Positions 1 through 54,472 are shown, numbered from the stretch's first letter. The stretch: DNA of 54,472 nucleotides from a virus (IMGVR_UViG_3300023503_000001:1-54472), one strand, 5' to 3'. Notes: generated from the letters alone by a model not told the origin. Numbers and translations are program-made.

Positions 1-178
1 AACTATAACTTCGTGTAAAGCAAATCCAACTACAGATGAAATAAATTGAACTTAAACTTTTTTATCAGAACATGCCTTAAACATTTTAATTGCTCCACAT
101 TACTGAAATTATAGTTCCAAATATAAATCCAGCTATAAACATAGATAGATTCGTAAAAATAAGATCTATTTTTGATTC
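1..178. repeat. Terminal direct repeat, copy 1 (circular-assembly overlap)
   Basis: Identical to 54295-54472 except position 52 (T vs A at 54346). Confidence 0.97.
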
Positions 179-220
179 TTCTTGTTTAGGTTTTTCGACA
201 TAATCTTTAGGTTGTTGCAT
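86..220 (-). CDS. Small membrane protein
   Basis: ATG at 220 with AAGGA RBS (the ORF-track start overlaps a tRNA); C-terminal hydrophobic helix. Confidence 0.6.
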   Translation of the reverse strand: MQQPKDYVEKPKQEESKIDLIFTNLSMFIAGFIFGTIISVMWSN

Positions 221-238
221 CTTATGTTCCTTATCAAC

Positions 239-315
239 TGGCACCCCTGACAGGACTCGAACCTGTAACACCGAGGGTAGAAACCTCGTGTTCTATCCGG
301 TTGAGCTACAGGGGC
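239..315 (-). tRNA. tRNA-Arg (UCU)
   Basis: GCCCCTG acceptor, anticodon arm CGAGG-TTTCTAC-CCTCG, TTCGAGT T-loop, encoded CCA. Confidence 0.95.
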
Positions 316-319
316 AAAA

Positions 320-395
320 TGGTGGGCCCACCAGGATTTGAACCTGGGACCAAGAGATTATGAGTCTCCTGCTCTAACCACTGAGCTATAGGCCC
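320..395 (-). tRNA. tRNA-Ile2 (CAU, lysidine type) rather than Met
   Basis: Cloverleaf with CTCATAA loop; sequence closely resembles ileX-type tRNAs; encoded CCA. Confidence 0.85.
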
Positions 396-524
396 AAAAC
401 TATTATACCTCAAAATCTAAACAGGTACGTGTGTTATTTGTAATTGTTTTTAGTATGATTGGTGCTATCATTGAAGCCATTGTAGATTACTTCGTTTATT
501 GAAAAATGTGATGAATGCTTTAAT

Positions 525-800
525 TCATATTAAATCATGACATTTAGACGCACCATAGCGCTTTATACATTTTCTCTCTTCAATAAGAAGATCTAACCTT
601 TCATTAGCTTCCTGCTCGAGTCGGAGCAGATCTAATGTAGGAATTTTAAATTTTACTTTATGTCCACTTTTCCACCTAACAATTAGGTCTTCAATATAAT
701 CATTAGGCAAACCTACGCTTGGATCAGCTGGCGCTATCTGAGCCTCAACTATTACAGATAATCCACTTTTAATAGTGGATTCAAATTCAAATTTGTACAT
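525..800 (-). CDS. Hypothetical phage protein
   Basis: 91-aa ORF with GAGGA RBS, directly behind a conserved promoter. Confidence 0.8.
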   Translation of the reverse strand: MYKFEFESTIKSGLSVIVEAQIAPADPSVGLPNDYIEDLIVRWKSGHKVKFKIPTLDLLRLEQEANERLDLLIEERKCIKRYGASKCHDLI

Positions 801-826
801 AATTTGTTCCTCTCTATTTTAAAAAT

Positions 827-892
827 ATTTTAACAAATTTGAATTTATTTGTAAAATTAAAATTTTTTATTTAGCTATAAAATATAGCTATA
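827..892 (-). promoter_or_regulatory. Conserved phage promoter, copy 1
   Basis: TATA-N9-TATA box, A-tract, TTTTAC, 18 nt, TAAAAT. Confidence 0.7.
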
Positions 893-919
893 TGAAATAT
901 ATTTAACTATCCATAGTGT

Positions 920-1140
920 TCTAAATATTTTTCAATATTTCTGCGTAGCTCATTTCTTCATCGCCTAACCAAGTTGTGCGCTTTGATTTCAGCCGATGTA
1001 ATTTAGCAAGTGCTTCGCTGAACGCACCTGGACCGTCCACTTGCGTTCGTGTACCCGTCGAAACCCGTCACCTCCGTCATGGTGGAAGTGGGTGGAATCG
1101 AACCCCTGTCCGAACGCCATCACGTTCGCTTCATCCGGCC
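920..1140 (-). ncRNA. ssrA: Circularly permuted (two-piece) tmRNA-like RNA; outer ends uncertain
   Basis: 3' end ...TTCGGACAGGGGTTCGATTCCACCCACTTCCACCA (CCA at 1080-1082), 4-nt linker, then 5' end GGAGGTGACGGGTTTCGACGGG from 1075; acceptor stem GGAGGTG/CACTTCC. Confidence 0.7.
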
Positions 1141-1151
1141 AGTTGCCAACC

Positions 1152-1310
1152 TCACCGGGAGTGAGATTCTTTCGAGGCCGTGAAATAGTCGCGCATCACT
1201 TCTTCCTCATAATCGTCGTCGTCGAGATCAATATCAGGTGGTTCGCTGAAAACAGCGATCACTATTAGGCACATCACACCGACGGCAAACACTGCAAACA
1301 AGGCGTCCAT
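1152..1310 (-). CDS. Small single-pass membrane protein with acidic tail (52 aa, not in ORF track)
   Basis: MDALFAVFAVGVMCLIVIAVFSEPPDIDLDDDDYEEE...; GAGGGG RBS. Confidence 0.65.
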   Translation of the reverse strand: MDALFAVFAVGVMCLIVIAVFSEPPDIDLDDDDYEEEVMRDYFTASKESHSR

Positions 1311-1459
1311 TACATTCCCCTCTATCTACTCAGTTGTCAACTTCACCGGGGGGGTGAAATTCTAAAAATTTTTCGAAGCACAAACAGTCCAAACGCTAAA
1401 AGCAAATACCCAACTGCCAATAGGATTTATGCCGCAAGTATCCATAACAGATCATGCAT

Positions 1460-1756
1460 TCATGCACCTTTCTTCTCATTATGTGCTTGTTGAAAGCCGA
1501 GCTCTATGACAGGACATCCGTTGCGATGTGCTCCGCGTTCTGAGCGGTAAATGCCACATGTACCTCTACGACATTTTGCACGCGCCCACTCTTCTACCTG
1601 GCGCAGGTCGTTGGTCAGCTGCTTCAGTATGTCGGCAACTTCAGGAGCGGCATCCAGATATTTTGCGCCGTAGGGAAAGAGACTCGGCGTTTCTACGAGA
1701 TTGTTGGCAAGGGTTGCCAGCTCGCGGGCGCGTTTGATCAATTCATCGTGATTCAT
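1460..1756 (-). CDS. Hypothetical protein, paralog of 2394-2609
   Basis: MNHDELIKRARE N-terminus; ATGA overlap with upstream gene. Confidence 0.75.
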   Translation of the reverse strand: MNHDELIKRARELATLANNLVETPSLFPYGAKYLDAAPEVADILKQLTNDLRQVEEWARAKCRRGTCGIYRSERGAHRNGCPVIELGFQQAHNEKKGA

Positions 1757-1992
1757 TGCCCTTCCCTCTCCATCTGTGCCAGGTCGCCCGCATCAAATGT
1801 GTTGGCGTACGGGACACCTGTGATTCCCGCGAACTTGCGGCACCGGAACTGCTTGGCGTTCGTCCGGCTCACCCGCATCTGGAGTAGATGCCCGGTGCTC
1901 ATGAAGTTGAACACGGCCACGTAGATCCAGTTCGACCACCAGCGCCAGCGGCCGATCTTCACATTTTCCACGGTCAGCACGTTGACTTTCAT
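1753..1992 (-). CDS. Hypothetical protein
   Basis: 79-aa ORF, AGGAG RBS, coupled to next gene. Confidence 0.7.
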   Translation of the reverse strand: MKVNVLTVENVKIGRWRWWSNWIYVAVFNFMSTGHLLQMRVSRTNAKQFRCRKFAGITGVPYANTFDAGDLAQMEREGQ

Positions 1993-2277
1993 CAGAGCTT
2001 TCTCCTAAGTATTTCTCTCCTTGTCGCAAACCACGAAGGTTTAAATAGTCGGCCTACCCCATGTACGTGTTACGGTAACTTTCACACCAGGGCTATCGGG
2101 ATACCATAGTCTAACCGTCTTTGGACGTAAAACGATGTTGTATAAAGGTACAATCAAGACTTTTATTTTCATAAGTAATTTCTCAACTTAGAAAAAATTT
2201 TTAGGATCGTATAAAATTAAAAGTACTAACACAAAAGCTATTAAAATTAATATTGAATCCATATTAGTCTCTAAATT

Positions 2278-2353
2278 TGGAGCCAGAGACAGGAATCGAA
2301 CCCGCGACATCCTCATTACAAGTGAGGCGCTCTACCTACTGAGCTACTCTGGC
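2278..2353 (-). tRNA. tRNA-Thr (UGU)
   Basis: GCCAGAG acceptor, CCTCA-CTTGTAA-TGAGG anticodon arm, encoded CCA. Confidence 0.95.
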
Positions 2354-2393
2354 ATTATAGCACAAATAAACGGAAGTCGAACCCACACTCTGT

Positions 2394-2609
2394 CTATAAA
2401 TGTAGCTCCTCTTTCTGTTCTGCTATCGCCTCGTGCGCTAATTGCGCGGACATGTCGAGTTTCTCCAGACGATCGGCCATCTGCTCAAGCAAATTTGCCA
2501 CCTCGTCTGCATAAGCTGCCTTGTTCAATACCCCAGTCTCGGTGAGTGGCTGCGATTTGATGTCGTTCGCCACCTCTCTGGCGCGTTTGATCAGTTCGTC
2601 GTTGCTCAT
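2394..2609 (-). CDS. Hypothetical helical protein (true start 2609)
   Basis: MSNDELIKRAREVA, GAGG RBS, ATGA coupling; the longer ORF-track N-terminus overlaps other genes. Confidence 0.7.
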   Translation of the reverse strand: MSNDELIKRAREVANDIKSQPLTETGVLNKAAYADEVANLLEQMADRLEKLDMSAQLAHEAIAEQKEELHL

Positions 2610-2713
2610 TTCAACCTCGCCCACGGTGATGACAGGAGCGCCAGGATCGCGGCGCAGATGACGACTATCAGGATCGCGGCGCAGATGACGACTATCAGGA
2701 TCGGCTCGCTCAC
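2606..2713 (-). CDS. 35-aa hydrophobic peptide (not in ORF track)
   Basis: MSEPILIVVICAAILIVVICAAILALLSSPWARLK; GTGA overlap upstream and ATGA overlap downstream. Confidence 0.65.
   Translation of the reverse strand: MSEPILIVVICAAILIVVICAAILALLSSPWARLK
2642..2703. repeat. 27-bp tandem repeat (2.3 copies)
   Basis: CAGGATCGCGGCGCAGATGACGACTAT at 2642 and 2669, partial copy at 2696. Confidence 0.95.
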
Positions 2714-3156
2714 AGCACCACCTCGCCTCGGTTGAGCTTATCAACAAGCTCCTCAACTTTTTCTCTCGGGCCGTAAGGTATCCAGGGGTTCCTGTATGCC
2801 ACGTCACACGAAGCATCCCACTCCTCAAACTGTACGTCGTATTCAGGAAAGTACGCGGGTAGTCCGGTCTCCGGCACCTCGTAGTCGGGCCAATGCTCCA
2901 GGGCATAGGCGACAAGTCGGTGGTGGACGCGCATGAGGTCGGCTGCCCGTGCTGCCAGGGCTTGGGTTGGGTACTCAAGGCCGAAGCGTCTGCGCATGGA
3001 TGATTCGATGCCCTCGCCTACATCCCCCCAACCGTTCACATAGAACCGCCCGCCCTTCGGCTCCCATTGTTGCGGCTTCGGGGGTTCGATGGTGATGCTC
3101 TCACCGCGTTGTAAAACATCCCACTGCTCATCAGTAAACTGAATTGTCTTGCTCAT
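2710..3156 (-). CDS. Hypothetical phage protein
   Basis: GC-rich ORF, AAGGAG RBS. Confidence 0.8.
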   Translation of the reverse strand: MSKTIQFTDEQWDVLQRGESITIEPPKPQQWEPKGGRFYVNGWGDVGEGIESSMRRRFGLEYPTQALAARAADLMRVHHRLVAYALEHWPDYEVPETGLPAYFPEYDVQFEEWDASCDVAYRNPWIPYGPREKVEELVDKLNRGEVVL

Positions 3157-3364
3157 GATCACACTCCTTATTATGGATCAATCTATTCAATGTCTCTTCT
3201 ATTTGACGTGCTTTTACTCGATGGATGTAAAGTCTTTGCATATTTGGATAATAATTCATCATCCGCAATTTTGGACTAAATGAATTGCGCTTCAATACAA
3301 AGACAAACCAAAACCAATCAAAAAACCCAACGGCTTTAATTTCTTTGATGTATCTTTTTAGCAT
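3131..3364 (-). CDS. Hypothetical protein
   Basis: 77-aa ORF in a tightly packed operon. Confidence 0.6.
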   Translation of the reverse strand: MLKRYIKEIKAVGFFDWFWFVFVLKRNSFSPKLRMMNYYPNMQRLYIHRVKARQIEETLNRLIHNKECDHEQDNSVY

Positions 3365-3707
3365 TGATTAAATCCGTATAAATCTCACAAGAATTTGGTC
3401 GGCATTTATCTGAGTCTAGAGCACAACCACCATCTACAAAGTTGGTACAAGTTTCATAAAGAGATTGTTGCTCGCATATTTTAAAAAGCATGGGATATTG
3501 ATTATCCACGCTAAAATTCATTTCTTTTCCAAGTTGTATGGAAGGCAACAATTTTTGAGCAACATAACGAGCACCTTCTTTTGTTATAGGCTGGGCCATA
3601 TAAACGCAATGAAAAACTGCGTCATTCAGTGTTTTGAATTGGGTGCGCAATGGACGCCAGAAGAAATCTGAGCCCTCTTTTTCTTTTCTAAAAGCTATAT
3701 AGCTCAT
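3336..3707 (-). CDS. Hypothetical protein with C-terminal Cys4 motif
   Basis: GGAGG RBS; CTNFVDGGC...CRPNSC. Confidence 0.75.
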   Translation of the reverse strand: MSYIAFRKEKEGSDFFWRPLRTQFKTLNDAVFHCVYMAQPITKEGARYVAQKLLPSIQLGKEMNFSVDNQYPMLFKICEQQSLYETCTNFVDGGCALDSDKCRPNSCEIYTDLINAKKIHQRN

Positions 3708-4009
3708 AGTATATCCTCCTCTTGCTCGTTTAGCTCTTTTCGTTTTATTTTCCAGTAAAGAGGACCATAACCTCTAAGGGCAAACAATTCTTCAATATTT
3801 ATTGGCTTAGCCCATTCACCCCACTTAATGAGCTTAACAGTTGGCTTATCCTCTCTTACTTTTTTGATGAGTTTAATTATTTTATCGTCCTCCCAAGGCT
3901 GAGCACCATCCCACCCCATCAGATTTTGAAAAGGCGGAATTTGCTCTCCTTTTTCATCAAGGAACGTAGTATTTCCGTTAGTAAATAGTGCTATTTGGGA
4001 GATCTTCAT
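3704..4009 (-). CDS. Hypothetical protein
   Basis: GGAGGT RBS, 101 aa. Confidence 0.8.
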   Translation of the reverse strand: MKISQIALFTNGNTTFLDEKGEQIPPFQNLMGWDGAQPWEDDKIIKLIKKVREDKPTVKLIKWGEWAKPINIEELFALRGYGPLYWKIKRKELNEQEEDIL

Positions 4010-4031
4010 AATTTACCTCCATCATCAATGA

Positions 4032-4119
4032 TGGTGCCCGAGGCCGGACTCGAACCGGCACTGTCTTACGACAGGCAGATTTTAAGTCTGCTGCGTCTAC
4101 CAAATTTCGCCACTCGGGC
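4032..4119 (-). tRNA. tRNA-Leu (UAA)
   Basis: Type II cloverleaf, GCAGA-CTTAAAA-TCTGC arm, long variable arm, encoded CCA. Confidence 0.95.
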
Positions 4120-4121
4120 AA

Positions 4122-4294
4122 TAAAGTTTATTAAAGAACTCCTGTGAGAGTGAGGCCTTTAAACTTAACACCTCATTTGAGATGATGGCTAGCACACCAT
4201 CTCCTTTCTACTCTATTGTAGAATCACTCCTATGGCCACTTGAAGCAGGGTTCTTCAACAACCCCTCTACACAGGAGCTCTTCAATAAACTTTA
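4122..4294 (-). ncRNA. Unidentified structured ncRNA candidate
   Basis: ~29-bp closing stem with two mismatches that are G.U only on the minus strand, enclosing four hairpins; sits between a promoter and tRNA-Leu. Confidence 0.65.
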
Positions 4295-4311
4295 AACATT
4301 TTGTAAAATAA

Positions 4312-4377
4312 ATTATAATTTAATTGAAAGAAAAAGTAAAATTAAACTTTTTTATAGCCTTATAAATTTAATTTATA
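4312..4377 (-). promoter_or_regulatory. Conserved phage promoter, copy 2
   Basis: TATAAATTAAATTTATA box, A-tract, TTTTAC(T), TATAAT. Confidence 0.8.
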
Positions 4378-4396
4378 GGGCACTATCTATTTAACA

Positions 4397-4800
4397 CTAA
4401 AGAAAATGTTGAAAACGAGCCTTCATAGCATCAATTGTCTTCTGTGGCACGTCATGTGCACTTTTATTTCCGTGTAAATTATTGACAGTCAGTACAATTA
4501 CTTCATAATCCTCCTCTTCTGCTTTGTTGAGATATTTTTTGAACTCCCAACACTGTGTGTTTGTACTGTCTACGATAACAGTGGTTTCTCGACGTTCGAG
4601 AGCCTCTCAGAATTGCCGGAAACAGGCGGCGTGGGCTAAGTGCAATTTCTTGCTATCGAAAACATATTCACCATACTCATTAACGAAATAGTTGTCGGCG
4701 GACACGACAACAGTATCACAGGGATTCAAACTGACGAGTAACTCTGCGAAATGTGACTTCCAGAACAAGGCAATCCACGTAAGATAATGCATGTCGACAT
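4397..4800 (-). pseudogene. Disrupted AAA_33 / polynucleotide-kinase-like P-loop kinase
   Basis: MSTCIILRGLPCSG, frameshift near 4760, KSHFA...SADNYF...AHAACFRQF, in-frame TGA at 4607-4609, then EAL...IVDSTNT...HDVP...MKARF. Confidence 0.8.
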
Positions 4801-4802
4801 AA

Positions 4803-5057
4803 TTAATTCCTCGCTTGTTTTACAAATGACACAGCTTCTTTCCACTCAAAGAACTCACCTTGAGTAAAGAGTCGAAAACACTCCTCACCAAACCCTGTCA
4901 TACTAACGACGAGTTCATTATCAGACTCACGTCGCCTGAAAGATATACAACGCAAACGAAACAAGCTCGCAAGTGTCATAAAGTGAAACTGCGGTGCTTT
5001 TCTCTCTTTAATGAAGAGTAATCGCAGACAATGTTTCTGGGATTCAGAAAATTTCAT
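4803..5057 (-). CDS. Hypothetical protein, possibly winged-helix-like
   Basis: GAGGTGA RBS, 84 aa. Confidence 0.7.
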   Translation of the reverse strand: MKFSESQKHCLRLLFIKERKAPQFHFMTLASLFRLRCISFRRRESDNELVVSMTGFGEECFRLFTQGEFFEWKEAVSFVKQARN

Positions 5058-5060
5058 AAG

Positions 5061-5357
5061 TCACCTCACTTGTTTACAGGTGAGGTACACAGTTTCAAAA
5101 GGTGATGACAAAGAAACTTTCGATTTTAATTTAAGTTCCTTAATAAGATCAATAACATTTTCGTTAAGAAGCTGTAATGTTTCTTCATTGATATAAAGCT
5201 CCCTGAAACATTCTTTCAAACTATTTATTATAGGATGAAGAACATCAGACATTATGACGTAGGTCATAGTACATTGTGTAGGATCAAAACCGCGGACTGA
5301 GTCGACGGCGAAATTATTTGTGTAAACAAAAACTTTGCACGGATAGTTATTAGACAT
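5061..5357 (-). CDS. Hypothetical protein (start 5357)
   Basis: AGAGGAG RBS before MSNNYP; the upstream in-frame extension runs through repeats. Confidence 0.7.
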   Translation of the reverse strand: MSNNYPCKVFVYTNNFAVDSVRGFDPTQCTMTYVIMSDVLHPIINSLKECFRELYINEETLQLLNENVIDLIKELKLKSKVSLSSPFETVYLTCKQVR

Positions 5358-5585
5358 GACTATCACTCCTCTATAACTAAGCTGACAAAACAAAGAAAAG
5401 GAAAAAATTTTCACGAAGCAAGACATTTTCCTTACAGAAGAAATTTTGTGTAAATTTTTTGAAAAAATCTCACTTTGTATATGCGAAGTTACGCGAAAAT
5501 AGCAAAAATGCCTTGCGATGTTATGCGAAAGACCACAATCGCACATAATCGCGCACAATCGCGATTTGCGAAACCTTTGTCTCCG

Positions 5586-5903
5586 TCAAATTTCTTCTCT
5601 CTCACGCCCTCGCGGAGTATGTTTCATATAGTAACCTTTCAAATACTCCCAATCTATTAACGCATAACAAATCACAAGAAGTTCTCTAATGAATTCTGCG
5701 TTTGATGCAAACTCTAACTCCTCATTTAGGAGGTTATCTTCCATCAAGAATAGATTAAAATCTGTTGCAAAATCTTCGATGGAAAAGAGTTGATCTGGGT
5801 CGTAAAAATTGATAACAGCCTGCGTTAGGCTCTTTATTTTATCTTCTACTGATGAAGCCACAGCTTGTTGATATTGATGTTGATCTGTAGTATTTTCTTT
5901 CAT
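5586..5903 (-). CDS. Acidic early protein
   Basis: AGGAGGT RBS, behind promoter copy 3. Confidence 0.8.
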   Translation of the reverse strand: MKENTTDQHQYQQAVASSVEDKIKSLTQAVINFYDPDQLFSIEDFATDFNLFLMEDNLLNEELEFASNAEFIRELLVICYALIDWEYLKGYYMKHTPRGREREEI

Positions 5904-5939
5904 AATGAACCTCCTAACAAAATTTCAATTTATACTTAT

Positions 5940-6004
5940 ATTATAGTTTAAATTTTTAAAAAGTACAATTAAACTTTTTTATTTTTGAATAAAATTTATT
6001 TATA
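5940..6004 (-). promoter_or_regulatory. Conserved phage promoter, copy 3
   Basis: TTGTAC-17-TATAAT plus upstream box. Confidence 0.8.
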
Positions 6005-6785
6005 TCATTTTTACAATTTTTATAAAATTATAAATATAGTGCATTTTCGCAAAATGCGAAAAATTTCGCATTTGCGAAAAACATCCAGTAACAATTTATA
6101 AAATTATTACTGCGTTGTTAAACTGTAAAATTGTAATTCTTATAAGTGTTTCGCGCACAATGTACCGGGCAGGCGTCCCTACCTGGGCGAGGGAGCCGAC
6201 CAAGCGAAGTTTGATGAATAATCACCCGAATTCACTATAACAAATTTGCTCTTCGCACGAGTTCGCATACATTCGCAAGCACAACGCAGCGTCGTCCTCA
6301 CCTGGATGACCTAGGGCCTGTCTTGTACTGGCTGGGGAGTCTTAGTTTCGCACAGCGTTGCATAACTTCGTTCAAGTTCGCAAAGTATAAATGAGTCAGG
6401 CCCCCCTGGGTAACTACCTTGAGTTGACTGCGTTGGCCCCCCCCCACTCGGGGCTAAATTGGCATTAAGTAGCGGGCGTGTGAAGAGCCAAAAGGCCTAG
6501 TGTCCAAGAGTGCACACACCCGAACTAGTGCATTTCTATATTCATAAAAAAAAAAAAAATATTATATATACATATATATGTTATTATTCTAGTAATTACA
6601 GACTGCTAGTCTGTAAGCTAGGCCCAGTCGATTTGGCTTGGGCCTAGTGCGTTTTGATGGATGTATGTCCTTGGCGGGCCCGTCATAGGAAGGACCTGGG
6701 CCTGGCTGGGCTCGACCAGGGACAGCGCTGTGTCTCTTTTGTGTGCGAAAATCTTCGCAACTTGCGAAAAAATTTATTAAAAGGT

Positions 6786-6816
6786 AAAAAATGCCTCCCA
6801 CAATTGGGAGGCAAAA
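6786..6816 (-). terminator. Rho-independent terminator
   Basis: TGCCTCCCA-ATTG-TGGGAGGCA followed by a T-run on minus. Confidence 0.85.
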
Positions 6817-6830
6817 CTACCAAGAGAAAG

Positions 6831-7016
6831 TTATGATGTTTTTGGAGGAGGCAAGAGCAATTTAGGCTCTGGCGGGGTTGATTTTTGTTGGACGGTAAAG
6901 GTGGGTGTTTTCTTTGACAGTGTAGTTTGCTTGAAGTAAGCCACACAGTCAACACAACCACAGAAAGGAGCATCAACGCAGATTGTAGGCATACCAACGC
7001 AGATTGTATGATTCAT
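6831..7016 (-). CDS. Small Cys-rich protein with Pro-rich tail
   Basis: AGGAGGT RBS; TICV repeated, CGCVDC; ends before terminator. Confidence 0.65.
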   Translation of the reverse strand: MNHTICVGMPTICVDAPFCGCVDCVAYFKQTTLSKKTPTFTVQQKSTPPEPKLLLPPPKTS

Positions 7017-7048
7017 GACAAATACCTCCTAAAGGAAAGAGGCTAGGA

Positions 7049-7348
7049 TTAAAAGATATACCAGCTATCGAACTCAAATTGAGGACGTTCGCCTTCTGGT
7101 GCTCTGTTGATATTGCGAGCTACGGCGATCTTATAACCAGCGTTATGGAGCGTGAGAGCGGCAGCTGGATGAACTACACCAACAATTGTATTGAGTGGTT
7201 GGCCATTAAGTCTTACTGTGGTTAGTAGTTTTTCCATGTTGAAGGCGTCAACATCACCAACCTCTTTGATTTGGGTCACGCCGAGATTTTTGAGTGCTTC
7301 TATTTGTTTACCATTCAGTGAATGACGGCTAATCCAAAGAAATTTCAT
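7049..7348 (-). CDS. Hypothetical protein, possibly Csx15/Csx16/Csx20-like
   Basis: GGAGG RBS; N-terminal LWISRHSLNGKQIEAL motif. Confidence 0.75.
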   Translation of the reverse strand: MKFLWISRHSLNGKQIEALKNLGVTQIKEVGDVDAFNMEKLLTTVRLNGQPLNTIVGVVHPAAALTLHNAGYKIAVARNINRAPEGERPQFEFDSWYIF

Positions 7349-7566
7349 TTGTGGTTCCTCCAAGTGTGTCCAATTTGGCCAATAACTTTGTCAATCAAGA
7401 GATTTGACAAAAGCACAAAAAAGATATAAGGTGGGCCTATCATACCAAAAATGGCATATGTCTTCAATAGCATCCACCAAAATTCTTCACCTTGTGGGCC
7501 TGAGGGCCATGGTGCCCAAAGCGAAAGGCTTAAGGCTGAGAAAAAAATTGTTATCGCTATTTTCAT
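7345..7566 (-). CDS. Small membrane protein
   Basis: Two hydrophobic segments, coupled overlaps. Confidence 0.7.
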   Translation of the reverse strand: MKIAITIFFSALSLSLWAPWPSGPQGEEFWWMLLKTYAIFGMIGPPYIFFVLLSNLLIDKVIGQIGHTWRNHK

Positions 7567-7871
7567 TGCAATTGCCCCGCCCAGCGCTCAAGATATTGCT
7601 CATACTCGCCTACAATATAGGCGAATAGATACTTTTCCAAAGTAGTAAGGTCTGTGTTTACAAACCGCCACTTCTCGAGCTCCAGAACGTAAGCATTTTG
7701 TTCTGGTGACCACTTAATGGCCCAGTGGTTGTCGTAGAGATAACCAACCCCACCCTCAGGGTAGGCATGAGATACATCACTAGGGACCGCAGATCTTTGC
7801 CATCTTGTAAATGCCAACCACCAAATTGTGGACTTTTCGTTAAATGGATAGACCTCATCAAATTCAAGCAT
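7563..7871 (-). CDS. Hypothetical early protein
   Basis: AGGAGG RBS, 102 aa. Confidence 0.8.
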   Translation of the reverse strand: MLEFDEVYPFNEKSTIWWLAFTRWQRSAVPSDVSHAYPEGGVGYLYDNHWAIKWSPEQNAYVLELEKWRFVNTDLTTLEKYLFAYIVGEYEQYLERWAGQLQ

Positions 7872-7919
7872 TATAGCCTCCTCTATGTCCTGATTAGAGA
7901 TGATTGATTAACCACCTCT

Positions 7920-7946
7920 AAAAAGGACACAGTCAGAAACTGTGTC
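7920..7946 (-). terminator. Terminator-like hairpin
   Basis: GACACAG-N7-CTGTGTC followed by CTTTTT on minus. Confidence 0.6.
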
Positions 7947-7984
7947 AAAGGAGCAAGAGCCCTAGAGAGGAGAGACTAGGACTC

Positions 7985-8134
7985 TCACGTGAACCACCGC
8001 TGAGCTATGATACACCGCCGACCAACAGTCGTTAACCAGCCCCGAAGGGGGTCTGAGCTGAAGTCCACTAGTTTTAGTACTTCATCTTCTGTCCACACCC
8101 AAAATAAGGCCTTGAAATATGGAAAATGTTGCAT
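7985..8134 (-). CDS. Small hypothetical protein
   Basis: GAGGAG RBS before MQHFPYF. Confidence 0.5.
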   Translation of the reverse strand: MQHFPYFKALFWVWTEDEVLKLVDFSSDPLRGWLTTVGRRCIIAQRWFT

Positions 8135-8151
8135 GGAAGTCTCCTCTGTGT

Positions 8152-8185
8152 AAAAAAGAGATGTGACACTTACGTGCCACATCCC
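8152..8185 (-). terminator. Rho-independent terminator
   Basis: GGGATGTGGCAC-GTAA-GTGTCACATCTC-TTTTTT. Confidence 0.85.
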
Positions 8186-8192
8186 TTAGTTG

Positions 8193-8537
8193 TCATGCTT
8201 CTTTTTCTTGCTTGGCCCACTCGAGGGCCATGGCAATGTAGTTATAGGCATGCTGATTTGAGCTGTACTTCTTGCCATTAACTTCACACATGCTTTTGAT
8301 GAGCTCCTTCTTAGGCATTTTACCATAGTTGGCACGAAGGAACTCGACAGTAGGGCCCCAGTCTGAAGAACCACTATGTGCGACTATGCCGAGCTCTTCT
8401 TTGAGCTCTTTGACGGTCTTTTTTGCTTCGTTTGTTGAAAAATCATGAGCGTAGATAAGGAATCCTTCCGCCTTGGCGGAAGTTGCACCAGCTTCCAGGA
8501 GTTCACGAGCTTGATCAATGGGGTTGACGTTTGCCAT
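8193..8537 (-). CDS. Two-repeat helical protein (EWAKQE family)
   Basis: Near-colinear paralog of 10339-10689; own promoter and terminator. Confidence 0.9.
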   Translation of the reverse strand: MANVNPIDQARELLEAGATSAKAEGFLIYAHDFSTNEAKKTVKELKEELGIVAHSGSSDWGPTVEFLRANYGKMPKKELIKSMCEVNGKKYSSNQHAYNYIAMALEWAKQEKEA

Positions 8538-8613
8538 GGTTGTTTACCTCACGGTAATGGTCCTGCTATGGTAGATATGAATAGAGTGGCAGGACATTCG
8601 CTCTATACATATA

Positions 8614-8679
8614 ATTATAGACAAAAAGTTTAAAAAAGTACAATTAAACTCTTTTATCTATGTATAAGTTTTATTTATG
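8614..8679 (-). promoter_or_regulatory. Conserved phage promoter, copy 4
   Basis: TTGTAC-18-TATAAT plus upstream box. Confidence 0.8.
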
Positions 8680-8887
8680 TCATGTTTTCAAAATCATGTA
8701 AACTACAATCTACTTTCTTACCACCTGGCGTTTCAAGTATCCATGCATCTTCATATGATATGTCCATTATATCACAAAACAGATAGAAAAAGTCAAATAT
8801 GGTCATATCATGATGTGGCCACATCTTGACATAGTAGCATTTACTGCTACTAAGATCTTTCAACTTACCATGTCTTAGTTTGCTCAT
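8675..8887 (-). CDS. Hypothetical early protein
   Basis: 70-aa ORF behind promoter copy 5. Confidence 0.75.
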   Translation of the reverse strand: MSKLRHGKLKDLSSSKCYYVKMWPHHDMTIFDFFYLFCDIMDISYEDAWILETPGGKKVDCSLHDFENMT

Positions 8888-8919
8888 GGTTTACTTCCTG
8901 TTGTCCACTTATACTTATA

Positions 8920-8984
8920 ATTATAGGCAAAAAAATTAAAAAATACAATTGAATTTTTCTATGAGCATATAAACTTATTTTATA
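8920..8984 (-). promoter_or_regulatory. Conserved phage promoter, copy 5
   Basis: TTGTAT-17-TATAAT plus upstream box. Confidence 0.8.
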
Positions 8985-9081
8985 ACATGAGGCAAATACC
9001 GCCAGGGGTACCCGCCATATTTAGAATATAGCAACGCCAGAAGATACCATAGGCTTCCTTGCCTATGGTATTTTTGTTATG

Positions 9082-9348
9082 TTATTTTATTTCTATGTTA
9101 AATCTATGCCATTGAGTACCATCAAAATACTCAGCCCCCCATTCTTGCTCTCCATTTATGAAGATCATGTTTAGTAGGGTACTAATTACTGCTATAGGCA
9201 GTGACTCATGGTAAAGACTTGTTATGGCTTCATACAATTCTTCTTCTTCTTTGAATTTTATTGTCTTTGCATATTTTGTATATATTGTATCATTATTTTC
9301 TTGTAGTGGTGTGACAATGATGGTCAACTCAGTTTTGTCTTCAAACAT
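9082..9348 (-). CDS. Acidic early protein (start 9348)
   Basis: GAGGAAG RBS before MFEDK. Confidence 0.75.
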   Translation of the reverse strand: MFEDKTELTIIVTPLQENNDTIYTKYAKTIKFKEEEELYEAITSLYHESLPIAVISTLLNMIFINGEQEWGAEYFDGTQWHRFNIEIK

Positions 9349-9416
9349 GGTATGCTTCCTCTTAGTAAGATATATGATGCACTTTATCAAGAGCTTTTTA
9401 AACTCTTGACATTTAT

Positions 9417-9482
9417 ATTATAGACTAAAAGAATTAAAAAGTACAATTGAATATTCTTTTAAGTCTATAAAATAAATTTATA
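9417..9482 (-). promoter_or_regulatory. Conserved phage promoter, copy 6
   Basis: TTGTAC-18-TATAAT plus upstream box. Confidence 0.8.
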
Positions 9483-9517
9483 TGGTATTGAATACCATAG
9501 TGCACGCAGGATTGTGA

Positions 9518-9556
9518 TAAAAAAATAGCGGCAAGTTAAAAACTTACCGCTATTTA
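9518..9556 (-). terminator. Rho-independent terminator
   Basis: AAATAGCGGTAAGTT...AACTTGCCGCTATTT followed by T-run. Confidence 0.85.
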
Positions 9557-9572
9557 TATGGTAGTTTAATTA

Positions 9573-9911
9573 TCAGCTTTCAAATAGTTCAAGCTGTAAT
9601 TCTGCCATGTCTTTATCTATCACATTCTCATTATGAAAGAATGTGATCATAGGATTCACACCAGGTTTCATATCAAGCTTGAATATGTATGTTTCATTTT
9701 CATACTCAATATGAAACTCTACATGTGAGAGTTCAACTCTGATGTGTTTGATCACACCATAGTTTACAACTCTATATATTAAACTTGCTTGATTAAATGA
9801 TACATCATAAAATTCTGTATCATTTTCACAAAGCATGATAACATCTTCAATATCATGCTCTTTATTATCAATAATCAAGCAACCAGCACTAAAATATGCA
9901 TCTTGACTCAT
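9573..9911 (-). CDS. Acidic early protein
   Basis: 112 aa, own promoter and terminator. Confidence 0.8.
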   Translation of the reverse strand: MSQDAYFSAGCLIIDNKEHDIEDVIMLCENDTEFYDVSFNQASLIYRVVNYGVIKHIRVELSHVEFHIEYENETYIFKLDMKPGVNPMITFFHNENVIDKDMAELQLELFES

Positions 9912-9998
9912 GGTATCTACTCTCTTGGTAAGTTAAAATTTGTATCATATAAAATATGATACAGTTCATATCAAGAATATTACATTCTTGATAATTAT

Positions 9999-10063
9999 AT
10001 TATATTATATAATTTTCTCCTTGTAAAATTGAATTTTTTATTTTTGAATTAGTTTTTCTTATA
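9999..10063 (-). promoter_or_regulatory. Conserved phage promoter, copy 7
   Basis: TTTTAC-18-TATAAT plus degenerate upstream box. Confidence 0.7.
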
Positions 10064-10125
10064 TCATACATAACTCTCACTTAACACCACACTGCATACT
10101 ATATAAGGCACTCTCACACCAGGTC

Positions 10126-10269
10126 TTACGCATGGCACCCTGGATTATGGGTGGCGAAGTATATTAGGTGATATGCATGTTTTCGTGTATAGCCCTTCTC
10201 TATAAGGACTTTTATTGCTTGTTCTCTTCCTCGTGTCCGGAGGTATTTCGCCGTCTCGTTGATGATCAT
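10126..10269 (-). CDS. 47-aa single-repeat member of the EWAKQE family (not in ORF track)
   Basis: GAGGAG RBS; MIINETAKYLRTRGREQAIKVLIEKGYTRKHAYHLIYFATHNPGCHA. Confidence 0.65.
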   Translation of the reverse strand: MIINETAKYLRTRGREQAIKVLIEKGYTRKHAYHLIYFATHNPGCHA

Positions 10270-10338
10270 TAGTTTGTCTCCTCTGTTGATTGGCAGAACA
10301 TATCACTTCCTTGTGATATGTTCTGCTTGGTTACTTAC

Positions 10339-10689
10339 TTACTTCTGAGCTTCGACTTCCTGTTTAGCCCATTCAATCGCCATTGCGATATAATTGTATG
10401 CGTGTTGGTTGGTCTTATAGGTCTTTCCGTTGACCTCACACATACCGTTGATCAACTCCTTTTTGCCAAGCTTGCCGTAATTTTCCCGAAGGAATTTCAC
10501 AGTCTCGGTCCAGCCGGCCTTGCTATAGGCGTTGGTGGAGATTCCGCATTTTTCGAATGCTTTGGCCGCCAAGGTTTTTGCCTCGTTGACCGAGCAATCG
10601 TGCATGTAGATGAGGAACCCCTCAACTTTCGCCTTCGTGGCGCCGCCCTCGACCATCTCGATTGCTTGTTGCATCATTTCATTGCTCAT
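10339..10689 (-). CDS. Two-repeat helical protein (EWAKQE family)
   Basis: AGGAG RBS; first gene of the minus-strand early region. Confidence 0.9.
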   Translation of the reverse strand: MSNEMMQQAIEMVEGGATKAKVEGFLIYMHDCSVNEAKTLAAKAFEKCGISTNAYSKAGWTETVKFLRENYGKLGKKELINGMCEVNGKTYKTNQHAYNYIAMAIEWAKQEVEAQK

Positions 10690-10876
10690 TTTATTTCTCC
10701 TCTAGTTGAGCATTTGACACATCGCTAAGTAATTATTTACTTAGCTCGAATTGCTAATAAACTAAATTGGTAAAAACGTCATTAGTTTATTAGACTTATC
10801 AAATTGTTAAAGAACATAACATATTACATATTTGTAATATGATTTTTATTTATTATTTTTATTTTTCATATTAATA

Positions 10877-10941
10877 ATTATAACATATAAATTTAATAAG
10901 TACAATACTAATTTTCTATATGTATATAAAAAATTTTTATA
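10877..10941 (-). promoter_or_regulatory. Conserved phage promoter, copy 8
   Basis: TTGTAC-17-TATAAT plus near-perfect TATAAAAATTTTTTATA box. Confidence 0.8.
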
Positions 10942-11004: not shown

Positions 11005-11150
11005 TCCACACACACACACACATACACACACCTCAGTCACTCACGCACTACATACTCACTTACTCGCCTCAGTCTCCCCCCACTCACACACACATACTCA
11101 TACACTCACTCACACACCTTAGTCCCTCACCATCACACTTTACACTCTAT
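11005..11150. repeat. CA-rich, G-poor low-complexity tract
   Basis: (CA)n and CACTCA units with CCTYAGTC three times. Confidence 0.85.
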
Positions 11151-46774: not shown

Positions 46775-47025
46775 TTGACTTTATGTTGGAAAGGTAAAGC
46801 GAAAGGATAACCATAGTGTAGCCAAGCTACATTGACGTCTAATTCAGAAGCTATTCTAAATAGAACAGCTTCTTCAGCTATACTCTCACATTCAATTCTA
46901 GAGAGTGTTGGTTGTGATATAAATACTTTCGAGGCAAGAGCCTTTTGAGTATATCGTCGTTTCCGTCGAATATACCTGACTCTTGCCCCGACAGTATTTA
47001 GTTTAATTAAAAGTTCTTTATTCAA
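46771..47025 (-). CDS. XRE-family HTH regulator
   Basis: TQKALA....ISQPTLSRIE...WL..G. Confidence 0.88.
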   Translation of the reverse strand: MNKELLIKLNTVGARVRYIRRKRRYTQKALASKVFISQPTLSRIECESIAEEAVLFRIASELDVNVAWLHYGYPFALPFQHKVK

Positions 47026-48794: not shown

Positions 48795-48859
48795 TTTTAT
48801 CTCCTAACGTTAAGTGAAATAAACCTACAGTTAATTTTATTTTTTTAACTGTAAGAATA

Positions 48860-48925
48860 ATTATAACAAGAAAAAGAAAAAAGTACAATCAAACTTTTTT
48901 ATACTACCTATAAAATTATTTTATA
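48860..48925 (-). promoter_or_regulatory. Conserved phage promoter, copy 9
   Basis: TTGTAC-17-TATAAT plus TATAAAATAATTTTATA box. Confidence 0.85.
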
Positions 48926-54055: not shown

Positions 54056-54378
54056 TACCTTCTCCTAATATCTCTAAGATATTTATAAAATGTATCCGAA
54101 CTTTCTAAAGAATGAATAATAAAATTATGAATGATATCTGCGTGACGTTCAATTACCTCCCTATAATAATTAATCTGGTTTACGGTTAAACCATTATTTA
54201 AAGCTACATCTATATCATAATTAGAAATACAAATATAATCAATGAAATTTTCTTCATTGAAGATATTTGGTGGCTCGAAGGTATAATCCGCTGTAACTAT
54301 AACTTCGTGTAAAGCAAATCCAACTACAGATGAAATAAATTGAACATAAACTTTTTTATCAGAACATGCCTTAAACAT
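54055..54378 (-). CDS. Hypothetical protein
   Basis: 107-aa ORF with GGAG RBS; start lies inside the terminal repeat. Confidence 0.7.
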   Translation of the reverse strand: MFKACSDKKVYVQFISSVVGFALHEVIVTADYTFEPPNIFNEENFIDYICISNYDIDVALNNGLTVNQINYYREVIERHADIIHNFIIHSLESSDTFYKYLRDIRRR

Positions 54379-54472
54379 TTTAATTGCTCCACATTACTGA
54401 AATTATAGTTCCAAATATAAATCCAGCTATAAACATAGATAGATTCGTAAAAATAAGATCTATTTTTGATTC
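54295..54472. repeat. Terminal direct repeat, copy 2
   Basis: Matches 1-178. Confidence 0.97.

Follow-up and report, generated by a model that had tools for sequence, protein, structure and literature searches.

The window analyzed here, that is, the whole stretch of DNA under study, is an entire IMG/VR virus record of 54,472 bases, which is classed as "linear" with a CheckV completeness of 55. Because its first 178 bases recur at its end (a direct repeat of 178 nt, window 1-178 versus 54295-54472, with 99% identity; repeat family D2), the record probably represents a complete genome, with either a terminal repeat or an assembly or circular overlap. The phage encodes a large terminase, a portal, a major head protein, a Pol I-type polymerase, and a helicase, together with a Sak4-like annealing protein, an SSB, a Cas4-domain exonuclease, a thymidylate synthase, and a dCMP deaminase. 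Its large terminase (TerL) is ~50% identical to those of Jersey-like siphoviruses, and the 54-kb genome is siphovirus-like. The only public sequencing run listed with the phage stretch is a DNA metagenome from a hydrothermal vent, possibly the source sample; RNA runs with the stretch are absent from the public sequencing runs listed.

The early region (window 1-10,100) is transcribed from the minus strand and holds small orphan open reading frames (ORFs) and four tRNA genes (Arg, Met, Thr, and Leu). Between the tRNA genes lie two GC-rich islands (window ~1200-2000 and ~2400-3200; 46-57% GC versus 35% for the genome), which look like foreign inserts and contain paralogous orphan ORFs (repeat D7) as well as an exact 27-nt tandem duplication (2642-2695). 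The element that is the subject of this analysis, a stretch of 173 nt on the minus strand (window 4294-4122; position p of the element corresponds to window coordinate 4295 - p), is located in the early region directly before the tRNA-Leu gene. In the order of transcription, the locus comprises the following features:

4341..4355, minus strand: A-rich upstream part of the promoter (ATAAAAAAGTTTAAT), common to other promoter copies (repeat family D1; aligned by eye)
4312..4340, minus strand: sigma-70-type promoter, TTTACT-17 nt-TATAAT, with 10/12 matches and predicted activity
4295..4304, minus strand: predicted 10-nt 5' leader (ACAAAAUGUU), unpaired in the fold of the longer transcript
4122..4294, minus strand: the element
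4120..4121, minus strand: UU linker between the stem of the element and tRNA position +1, with a putative RNase P site at its 3' side
4032..4119, minus strand: tRNA-Leu (anticodon UAA) with an encoded CCA end (ARAGORN; 58.2 bits with the Rfam tRNA model)
4007..4034, minus strand: small hairpin CCAUCA/UGAUGG overlapping the CCA end, then GGAGG and ATG

The predicted start, A4304, was placed according to the usual spacing of 7 to 8 nt after the -10 hexamer. An initial annotation of this DNA had positioned the element ~10 nt after the predicted start and 2 nt before tRNA-Leu, and both distances match the coordinates. The promoter motif AAAAARTTYAATTGTAC-17-TATAAT is present in at least 9 copies, all of them on the minus strand and before early genes (spanning window 838-10920 and 48856-48903), which point the same way as the neighboring genes and are often preceded by a palindrome resembling TATAAATAAATTTTAT. 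Since the GGAGG and ATG of a 101-amino-acid (aa) ORF (3704-4009), the first early ORF downstream, directly follow tRNA-Leu, the unit continues into mRNA. Between the promoter and the tRNA, no terminator-like sites were found on the minus strand other than a call on a small inner hairpin (4184-4169), and when the 346-nt transcript is folded, the cloverleaf of the tRNA and the element form separate domains. Judging from its position in the unit and from the predicted promoter, the element is almost certainly transcribed together with tRNA-Leu; because it sits within a transcription unit, its RNA is expected to be made.

An independent assembly of one public run matches window 3600-4267 with 0 differences, and the run contigs contain no variants in the part of the element that they cover, window 4268-5000 being without cover. 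Within this uncovered part, the gene upstream of the promoter (4399-4800, minus strand), an AAA_33/phrog_2071 ATPase, is broken by a frameshift in its P-loop (between GLPCSG and KS) and by an in-frame TGA, and it is possible that this breakage is an assembly error. Recoding of TGA, which the in-frame TGA had suggested, was ruled out, as the large genes are intact under table 11. TATAAT is also found 6 nt before tRNA-Met and 0 nt before tRNA-Thr (window 396-420 and 2354-2370, minus strand); if these were promoters, transcription would begin at or within the tRNA, which would be odd.

The ends of the element pair with each other. In the minus-strand fold, positions 1-25 pair with 149-173, U26 is bulged, and AGAG (27-30) pairs with CUCU (145-148), the resulting stem of 25+4 pairs enclosing an interior of 114 nt. 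From the 5' end to the 3' end, the predicted parts are as follows:

4265..4294, minus strand: 5' strand of the closing stem (positions 1-25, U26 bulge at 4269, AGAG 27-30)
4248..4264, minus strand: hairpin 1, GGGUU-GUUGAAG-AACCC, positions 31-47 (MFE fold)
4224..4247, minus strand: weakly structured central strand, positions 48-71, where the MFE and centroid folds disagree
4206..4223, minus strand: hairpin 3, UUCUAC-AAUAGA-GUAGAA, positions 72-89, with 6 Watson-Crick pairs
4179..4203, minus strand: hairpin 4, a 9-bp stem GAGAUGGUG/CAUCAUCUC, positions 92-116
4151..4175, minus strand: hairpin 5, UGAGGU...GCCUCA, positions 120-144
4122..4150, minus strand: 3' strand of the closing stem (CUCU 145-148 and positions 149-173)

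The stem of ~29 bp that the initial annotation had assigned to the minus-strand ends is thus made up of 25 bp, a one-base bulge, and 4 further pairs. Its 25-nt arms are 92% complementary. Both mismatches had been described as G.U pairs on the transcribed strand only, and this is what we find: the two non-Watson-Crick positions are G12.U162 and G17.U157 in the minus-strand RNA, whereas on the plus strand the same positions are A/C mismatches, which open the stem. The minus strand folds with an MFE of -76.2 kcal/mol, compared with -41.1 ± 3.95 kcal/mol in shuffled sequences (z = -8.89; 0 of 200 as good), while the plus strand reaches -56.4 kcal/mol (z = -6.10). Among 1248 windows of 173 nt taken from both strands, the element is the strongest GC-corrected outlier (-5.47 standard deviations [sd]). 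The real genome contains one inverted repeat in which at least 23 of 25 positions are complementary within 400 nt, namely the element itself, and none appears in any of 30 first-order Markov resamplings. The observed stem is far beyond chance and is the only inverted repeat of such quality in the 54-kb genome. In base composition, the element has a GC content of 40.5% (43.9% in the interior), as opposed to 16% in the adjacent noncoding promoter region and 35% genome-wide.

The interior is a different matter. Folded alone (positions 31-144), it reaches -34.1 kcal/mol with a z-score of -2.39 (equaled or surpassed by 8 of 200 shuffles) on the minus strand; the z-score on the plus strand is -1.76. 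The interior fold is at best modestly better than random, and it is the long stem that carries the statistics; a plain inverted repeat would yield most of the fold signal. The "multibranch" part of the structure is therefore backed by much weaker evidence than the stem. Of the hairpins proposed initially, UUCUAC/GUAGAA (72-77/84-89), GAUGG/CCAUC, and UGAGG/CCUCA recur in the MFE fold, but UUGAAG/CUUCAA (37-42/50-55) does not, its place being taken by GGGUU/AACCC (31-35/43-47). The loop of hairpin 1 contains UUGAAG, which is complementary to CUUCAA at positions 50-55 and would allow an alternative hairpin or a pseudoknot; as plain hairpins the two pairings are mutually exclusive, and from the sequence they would be compatible only as a putative tight pseudoknot. 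The central strand carries a small CAU-AGGA-GUG hairpin (positions 61-70). Hairpin 4 is formed by the helix 92-100/108-116, with a G98.U110 pair and the loop UGCUAGC, and hairpin 5 is formed by 6 pairs (120-125/139-144), including U125.G139, around a large AU-rich loop.

The asymmetry between the strands extends beyond the stem. The minus-sense fold has 6 G.U pairs among 63, of which 4 lie in robust helices, versus 0 G.U pairs among 53 in the plus-sense fold, and a bias of 4 versus 0 corresponds to a p of ~0.06 under a neutral 50:50 expectation. This asymmetry, which is suggestive only given the few sites, speaks for selection on the transcribed strand, or at least for folding of it.

Known RNA families do not account for the element. 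In the comparison with Rfam that had been proposed at the outset, no family matched at gathering thresholds: over the whole window, the four tRNAs were the only hits at or above threshold in Rfam 15. Searches at E ≤ 10 with 601 nt and 177 nt gave no family match either, the best non-tRNA scores, SraG with 21.1 bits (threshold, 50), MIR868 with 17.8 (200), skipping-rope with 13.8 (36.7), and T-box with 10.6 (93), all being at chance level. A 6S RNA was rejected for the lack of an Rfam match, and a retron msr-msd RNA was rejected as the reverse transcriptase domain PF00078 had 0 matches in the phage record while the positive controls matched. Y RNAs and YrlA, which occur in phages near tRNA genes, have a long stem of both ends and a branched module, and the element is alike in both respects; this candidate was likewise rejected, with no Rfam match, no tRNA-like module (ARAGORN), and no PF05731 (TROVE/Ro) in the phage, where control genomes match. 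The packaging RNA of phi29 measures 174 nt, has paired ends, and is made from an early promoter, so that it resembles the element in its near-identical length, its paired ends, and its early promoter. It was rejected as well: the element has no Rfam match to it, and the phage has a large terminase, a portal, a Pol I-type polymerase, and a genome of 54 kb.

The initial annotation had also drawn a parallel to RNAs C and D of phage T4, and this parallel is a loose one. The T4 tRNA region encodes small RNAs whose role is described as unexplained (PMC3014915); the T4 annotation gives rnaC (species 1) a length of 139 nt and rnaD (species 2) a length of 119 nt. Like the element, these are small phage RNAs in a tRNA cluster that are cotranscribed with tRNAs. 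However, they sit 3' of tRNA-Arg whereas the element sits 5' of a tRNA, rnaC ends in a tRNA-like T arm (as read from its sequence), and neither has a 29-bp closing stem. Homology was rejected, since position and architecture differ and a covariance model built from the single element sequence (R1) scored 4.2 bits (E = 1) on rnaC.

A second precedent is the 3' external transcribed spacer (3'ETS) of glyW-cysT-leuZ in Escherichia coli, a functional RNA derived from the processing of a tRNA precursor (10.1101/2021.04.25.441314). The element would likewise be a spacer by-product of a tRNA precursor, and its anatomy fits a spacer RNA; the 3'ETS differs in being a 3' spacer that is released by RNase E and pairs with small RNAs (sRNAs), whereas the element lies on the 5' side of its tRNA and contains a long duplex. 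Complementarity between the element and the rest of the phage amounted to 7 shared 11-mers, all AT-rich, where ~4 were expected, and revealed no antisense target.

Relatives of the element were sought along several routes. With a 421-nt query, blastn (word size 11) against GenBank phages returned tRNA-Leu genes only, and the element alone returned nothing from GenBank phages and nothing from PLSDB plasmids. In IMG/VR, which was searched with exact patterns only, such that relatives below ~90 to 95% identity would be missed, the two stem halves separated by a gap gave 0 matches, and the 18-mer of hairpin 1 gave 6 loci that have this 18-mer alone in common. The metagenome collection was searched with TerL instead of the element itself: a TerL alignment gave 80 metagenome loci at 40 to 48% identity, and it gave none in the species-genome contigs. 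TerL has one relative in IMG/VR, with 69% identity, whose 39.5-kb contig begins at TerL; when the entire record of this relative was searched at the DNA level with window 4032-4420, nothing was found. Over 82 TerL-linked sources (804,764 bases), R1 recovered the window itself only.

Anchoring on the flanks of the element led to the same outcome. A 20-mer of tRNA-Leu identified 41 IMG/VR loci, among which the best R1 score was 9.7 bits (E = 0.95) and no comparable stem appeared when the 185 nt upstream of the tRNA were folded. In six of the IMG/VR loci (L099, L105, L111, L116, L117, and L129), tRNA-Leu(UAA) diverges right after the anticodon, presumably as expected for the known tRNA-Leu(UAA) group I intron. 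An 18-mer of the promoter gave 41 single, chance-like matches, with a best R1 score of 13 bits for a partial match. A 28-mer covering the T arm and acceptor end of tRNA-Leu matched more than 120 bacterial loci, of which 80 were searched with R1 and gave 0 hits at E ≤ 1; the identity of the tRNA-Leu to bacterial loci allowed no host call, and a 28-mer of the tRNA 5' half had 0 matches. Altogether, R1 was applied to ~2.1 Mb of loci (TerL, tRNA-Leu, and promoter anchors) and to 156 bacterial genomes, and nothing was found.

The initial annotation had spoken of a new phage noncoding RNA (ncRNA) class. A class needs more than one member, and with no second member found in any of the collections and locus sets searched, this designation is unsupported. 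The transcribed element is real and unique, with strong self-complementarity, and it is a plausible RNA but a singleton. The protein encoded by the neighboring 101-aa ORF has no relative in IMG/VR and finds only itself among 5.8 billion proteins; because this neighbor is itself an orphan, the early region as a whole is unsampled, and the missing relatives therefore say little about the function of the element.

Our best reading, which we favor tentatively and at somewhat less than an even chance, is that the element is a cotranscribed structured 5' spacer RNA of the tRNA-Leu early transcript. In this proposal, the unit would consist of the promoter, the 10-nt leader, the 173-nt hairpin-closed domain, UU, tRNA-Leu(UAA), and the early ORFs. 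Host RNA polymerase would start ~10 nt upstream of the element, and the nascent RNA would fold into an autonomous domain closed by the 25+4 pairs, as it does in silico, also within the 346-nt transcript. Going by the general mechanism of RNase P, the enzyme would cut at the 5' end of the tRNA, and since production of the tRNA requires a cut at this point, 2 nt past the stem, the element would thereby acquire a defined 3' end. RNA duplexes such as this one, 29 bp long and nearly perfect, are generic substrates of bacterial RNase III; the stem would therefore probably be cut as well where the host has this enzyme. Such a cut would separate the tRNA and the downstream mRNA from the 5' leader and from upstream read-through RNA, and it would leave a hairpin-capped RNA of ~145 to 173 nt. 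The main role of the element would be exerted in cis, through maturation and insulation of the tRNA-Leu/early-gene transcript. RNase P normally contacts the single-stranded leader of a tRNA precursor; because the stem reaches tRNA position -3 and would cover this leader, the element could gate the maturation of tRNA-Leu.

Comparable arrangements are the RNase III processing stalks of rRNA precursors and of T7 early RNA, in which a long duplex flanks a structured RNA in a polycistronic precursor. The element is similar in that flanking sequences form a long duplex in a polycistronic precursor next to a tRNA. It is different in that rRNA precursors enclose rRNA, whereas the element encloses 114 nt of orphan sequence and its cleavage is only predicted. 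Among the points against the cis-acting spacer is that none of the other three tRNA genes of the phage (Arg, Met, and Thr) has such an element upstream. If the RNA is made and processed as proposed, a phage tRNA gene would serve as a built-in 3'-end-forming signal for the structured RNA upstream of it, and the element could reveal in what way tRNA maturation is controlled by a long duplex lying next to the tRNA. In bacteria, tRNA spacers are a source of functional RNAs, and in eukaryotic cells cleavage takes place upstream of tRNA-like structures; to our knowledge, phage cases beyond the unexplained RNAs C and D of T4 are little documented.

As the main alternative, the element could be a neutral or selfish palindromic insertion into a preexisting promoter-tRNA unit that is transcribed passively. 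We consider this unlikely, yet far from negligible. It might have arisen as a miniature inverted-repeat transposable element (MITE)-like insertion, which would have terminal inverted repeats of 25 to 29 bp, a length of 173 bp, and a TA or TTTA duplication, or as an inverted duplication by template switching. Its size and its terminal repeats fit the MITE format, with no ORF of at least 40 aa inside. The element ends in TA...TA within the flanks TT...TT, and a TA duplication is possible; because the TA ends are palindromic and extend the stem, a TA (or TTTA) duplication is indistinguishable from the stem itself. Deletion of 4122-4294 leaves TATAAT, ~17 nt, and the tRNA, an ordinary unit like those of tRNA-Met and tRNA-Thr. 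An insertion would also agree with an interior that is barely better folded than chance and with an orphan located in an early region that contains foreign-looking GC-rich inserts.

The closest model for such an insertion is the Correia repeat-enclosed element. Correia elements create a TA duplication. Those of Neisseria are described as transcribed hairpins that RNase III can bind or cut (PMC2649163), and the likeness to the phage element comprises a size of 100 to 200 bp, terminal inverted repeats of ~26 bp, and hairpins that would be accessible to RNase III. Correia elements occur in many copies per genome, whereas the phage element is present in a single copy and no second copy was found in the collections searched. 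Of the features by which a MITE is recognized, terminal repeats and a small size without a transposase are present, but multiple dispersed copies were absent from the genomes searched.

Several further observations argue against an insertion. The 21-nt consensus of the arms has 0 exact matches in 185,579 species genomes and 0 exact matches in IMG/VR, in line with the empty blastn searches of GenBank phages and plasmids. R1 gave no full-length match in 5 chosen genomes and 151 genomes of the order around a Sulfurovum metagenome-assembled genome (MAG; G002), its best partial matches (11.9 and 16.9 bits) being at chance level; these genomes are a sample. In the source community, the contigs of three runs contained only the phage's own sequence over 4117-4257 at a likeness of at least 80%, although repeats may go unseen in contigs. 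Every mismatch is a G.U pair when read in the transcribed sense. Finally, the phage has no reverse transcriptase, and no transposase was found among the 28 distinct protein stretches scanned.

A rather improbable alternative, which builds on the decoy idea of the initial annotation, assigns the same anatomy to a stable trans-acting ncRNA, released by RNase P, that acts as a decoy or sponge for a host factor in defense, RNA processing, or translation. The long terminal helix would shield both ends from exonucleases, and the transcribed sense carries three AGGAG motifs, with one AGGA in the loop of the hairpin at positions 61-70. The small RNAs of the T4 tRNA region offer a precedent (PMC3014915). 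However, no partner, target, or homolog was found, complementarity to the phage does not exceed chance, and the interior has a weak fold; the phage also lacks a Ro/TROVE gene, and the element has no Rfam match to Y RNA, 6S RNA, or any other family. It is more doubtful still that the element represents the first example of a novel type of phage RNA, namely, an early, hairpin-capped RNA of ~150 to 170 nt with a 3' end made by RNase P that acts in trans, for example, as a decoy for an RNA-processing enzyme or an RNA-sensing defense of the host. Its orphan status would then arise only because vent phages have barely been sampled. For the present, its value is that of a candidate from one hydrothermal-vent virus contig rather than an established new class.

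A function at the level of DNA, either as a protein-binding inverted repeat or as a structure of single-stranded minus-strand DNA of the origin or primosome-site type, appears very improbable. With DNA parameters, too, the minus strand gives a good fold (-35.1 kcal/mol; z = -6.7), and folding of the same strand as single-stranded DNA would likewise fit the G.U bias, as G.T wobbles give the same strand bias as G.U pairs in RNA. Against this, the element sits within a transcription unit, 10 nt from a start site, no iterons are found in or beside it, and a better origin-like candidate exists elsewhere in the phage. This is window ~6100-6860, a stretch of ~750 nt with no credible ORF, many TTCGCA/TGCGAA words, and a run of ~15 T; it contains very stable folds (6558-6817, plus strand, -4.2 sd) and may represent an origin, an operator region, or a further RNA.

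That the element encodes a small protein is hardly credible: the initial annotation had held that no ORF explains it, and indeed the frames inside it measure only 23 to 37 aa, none reaching 40 aa, and although one frame of 32 aa (4195-4097, minus strand) has a GUG start 5 nt after AAGGAG, it starts within hairpin 4, crosses the 3' arm, runs 22 nt into the tRNA gene, and is too short for any family or relative to be sought.

Strong folding alone is not the mark of an RNA gene in this phage, because other parts of the genome, coding sequence included, are hairpin-rich. The stretch 9500-9870, which is mostly a 112-aa orphan ORF (9573-9911, minus strand), has a z-score of -9.8 over 371 nt; the ORF is dense in near-perfect hairpins of 10 to 15 bp, which is unusual for coding sequence, and directly after it comes a strong terminator-like hairpin that has a U run (~9523-9555). 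Between the genes for the SSB and the Cas4-domain exonuclease (46780-47022, minus strand), the intergenic sequence forms a stem of ~22 bp and further hairpins (z = -5.9). Repeats of another type, CA-rich and imperfect (CCACACACACACACACATACACACAC and variants; D6), occupy window 11006-11111, just upstream of the packaging genes.
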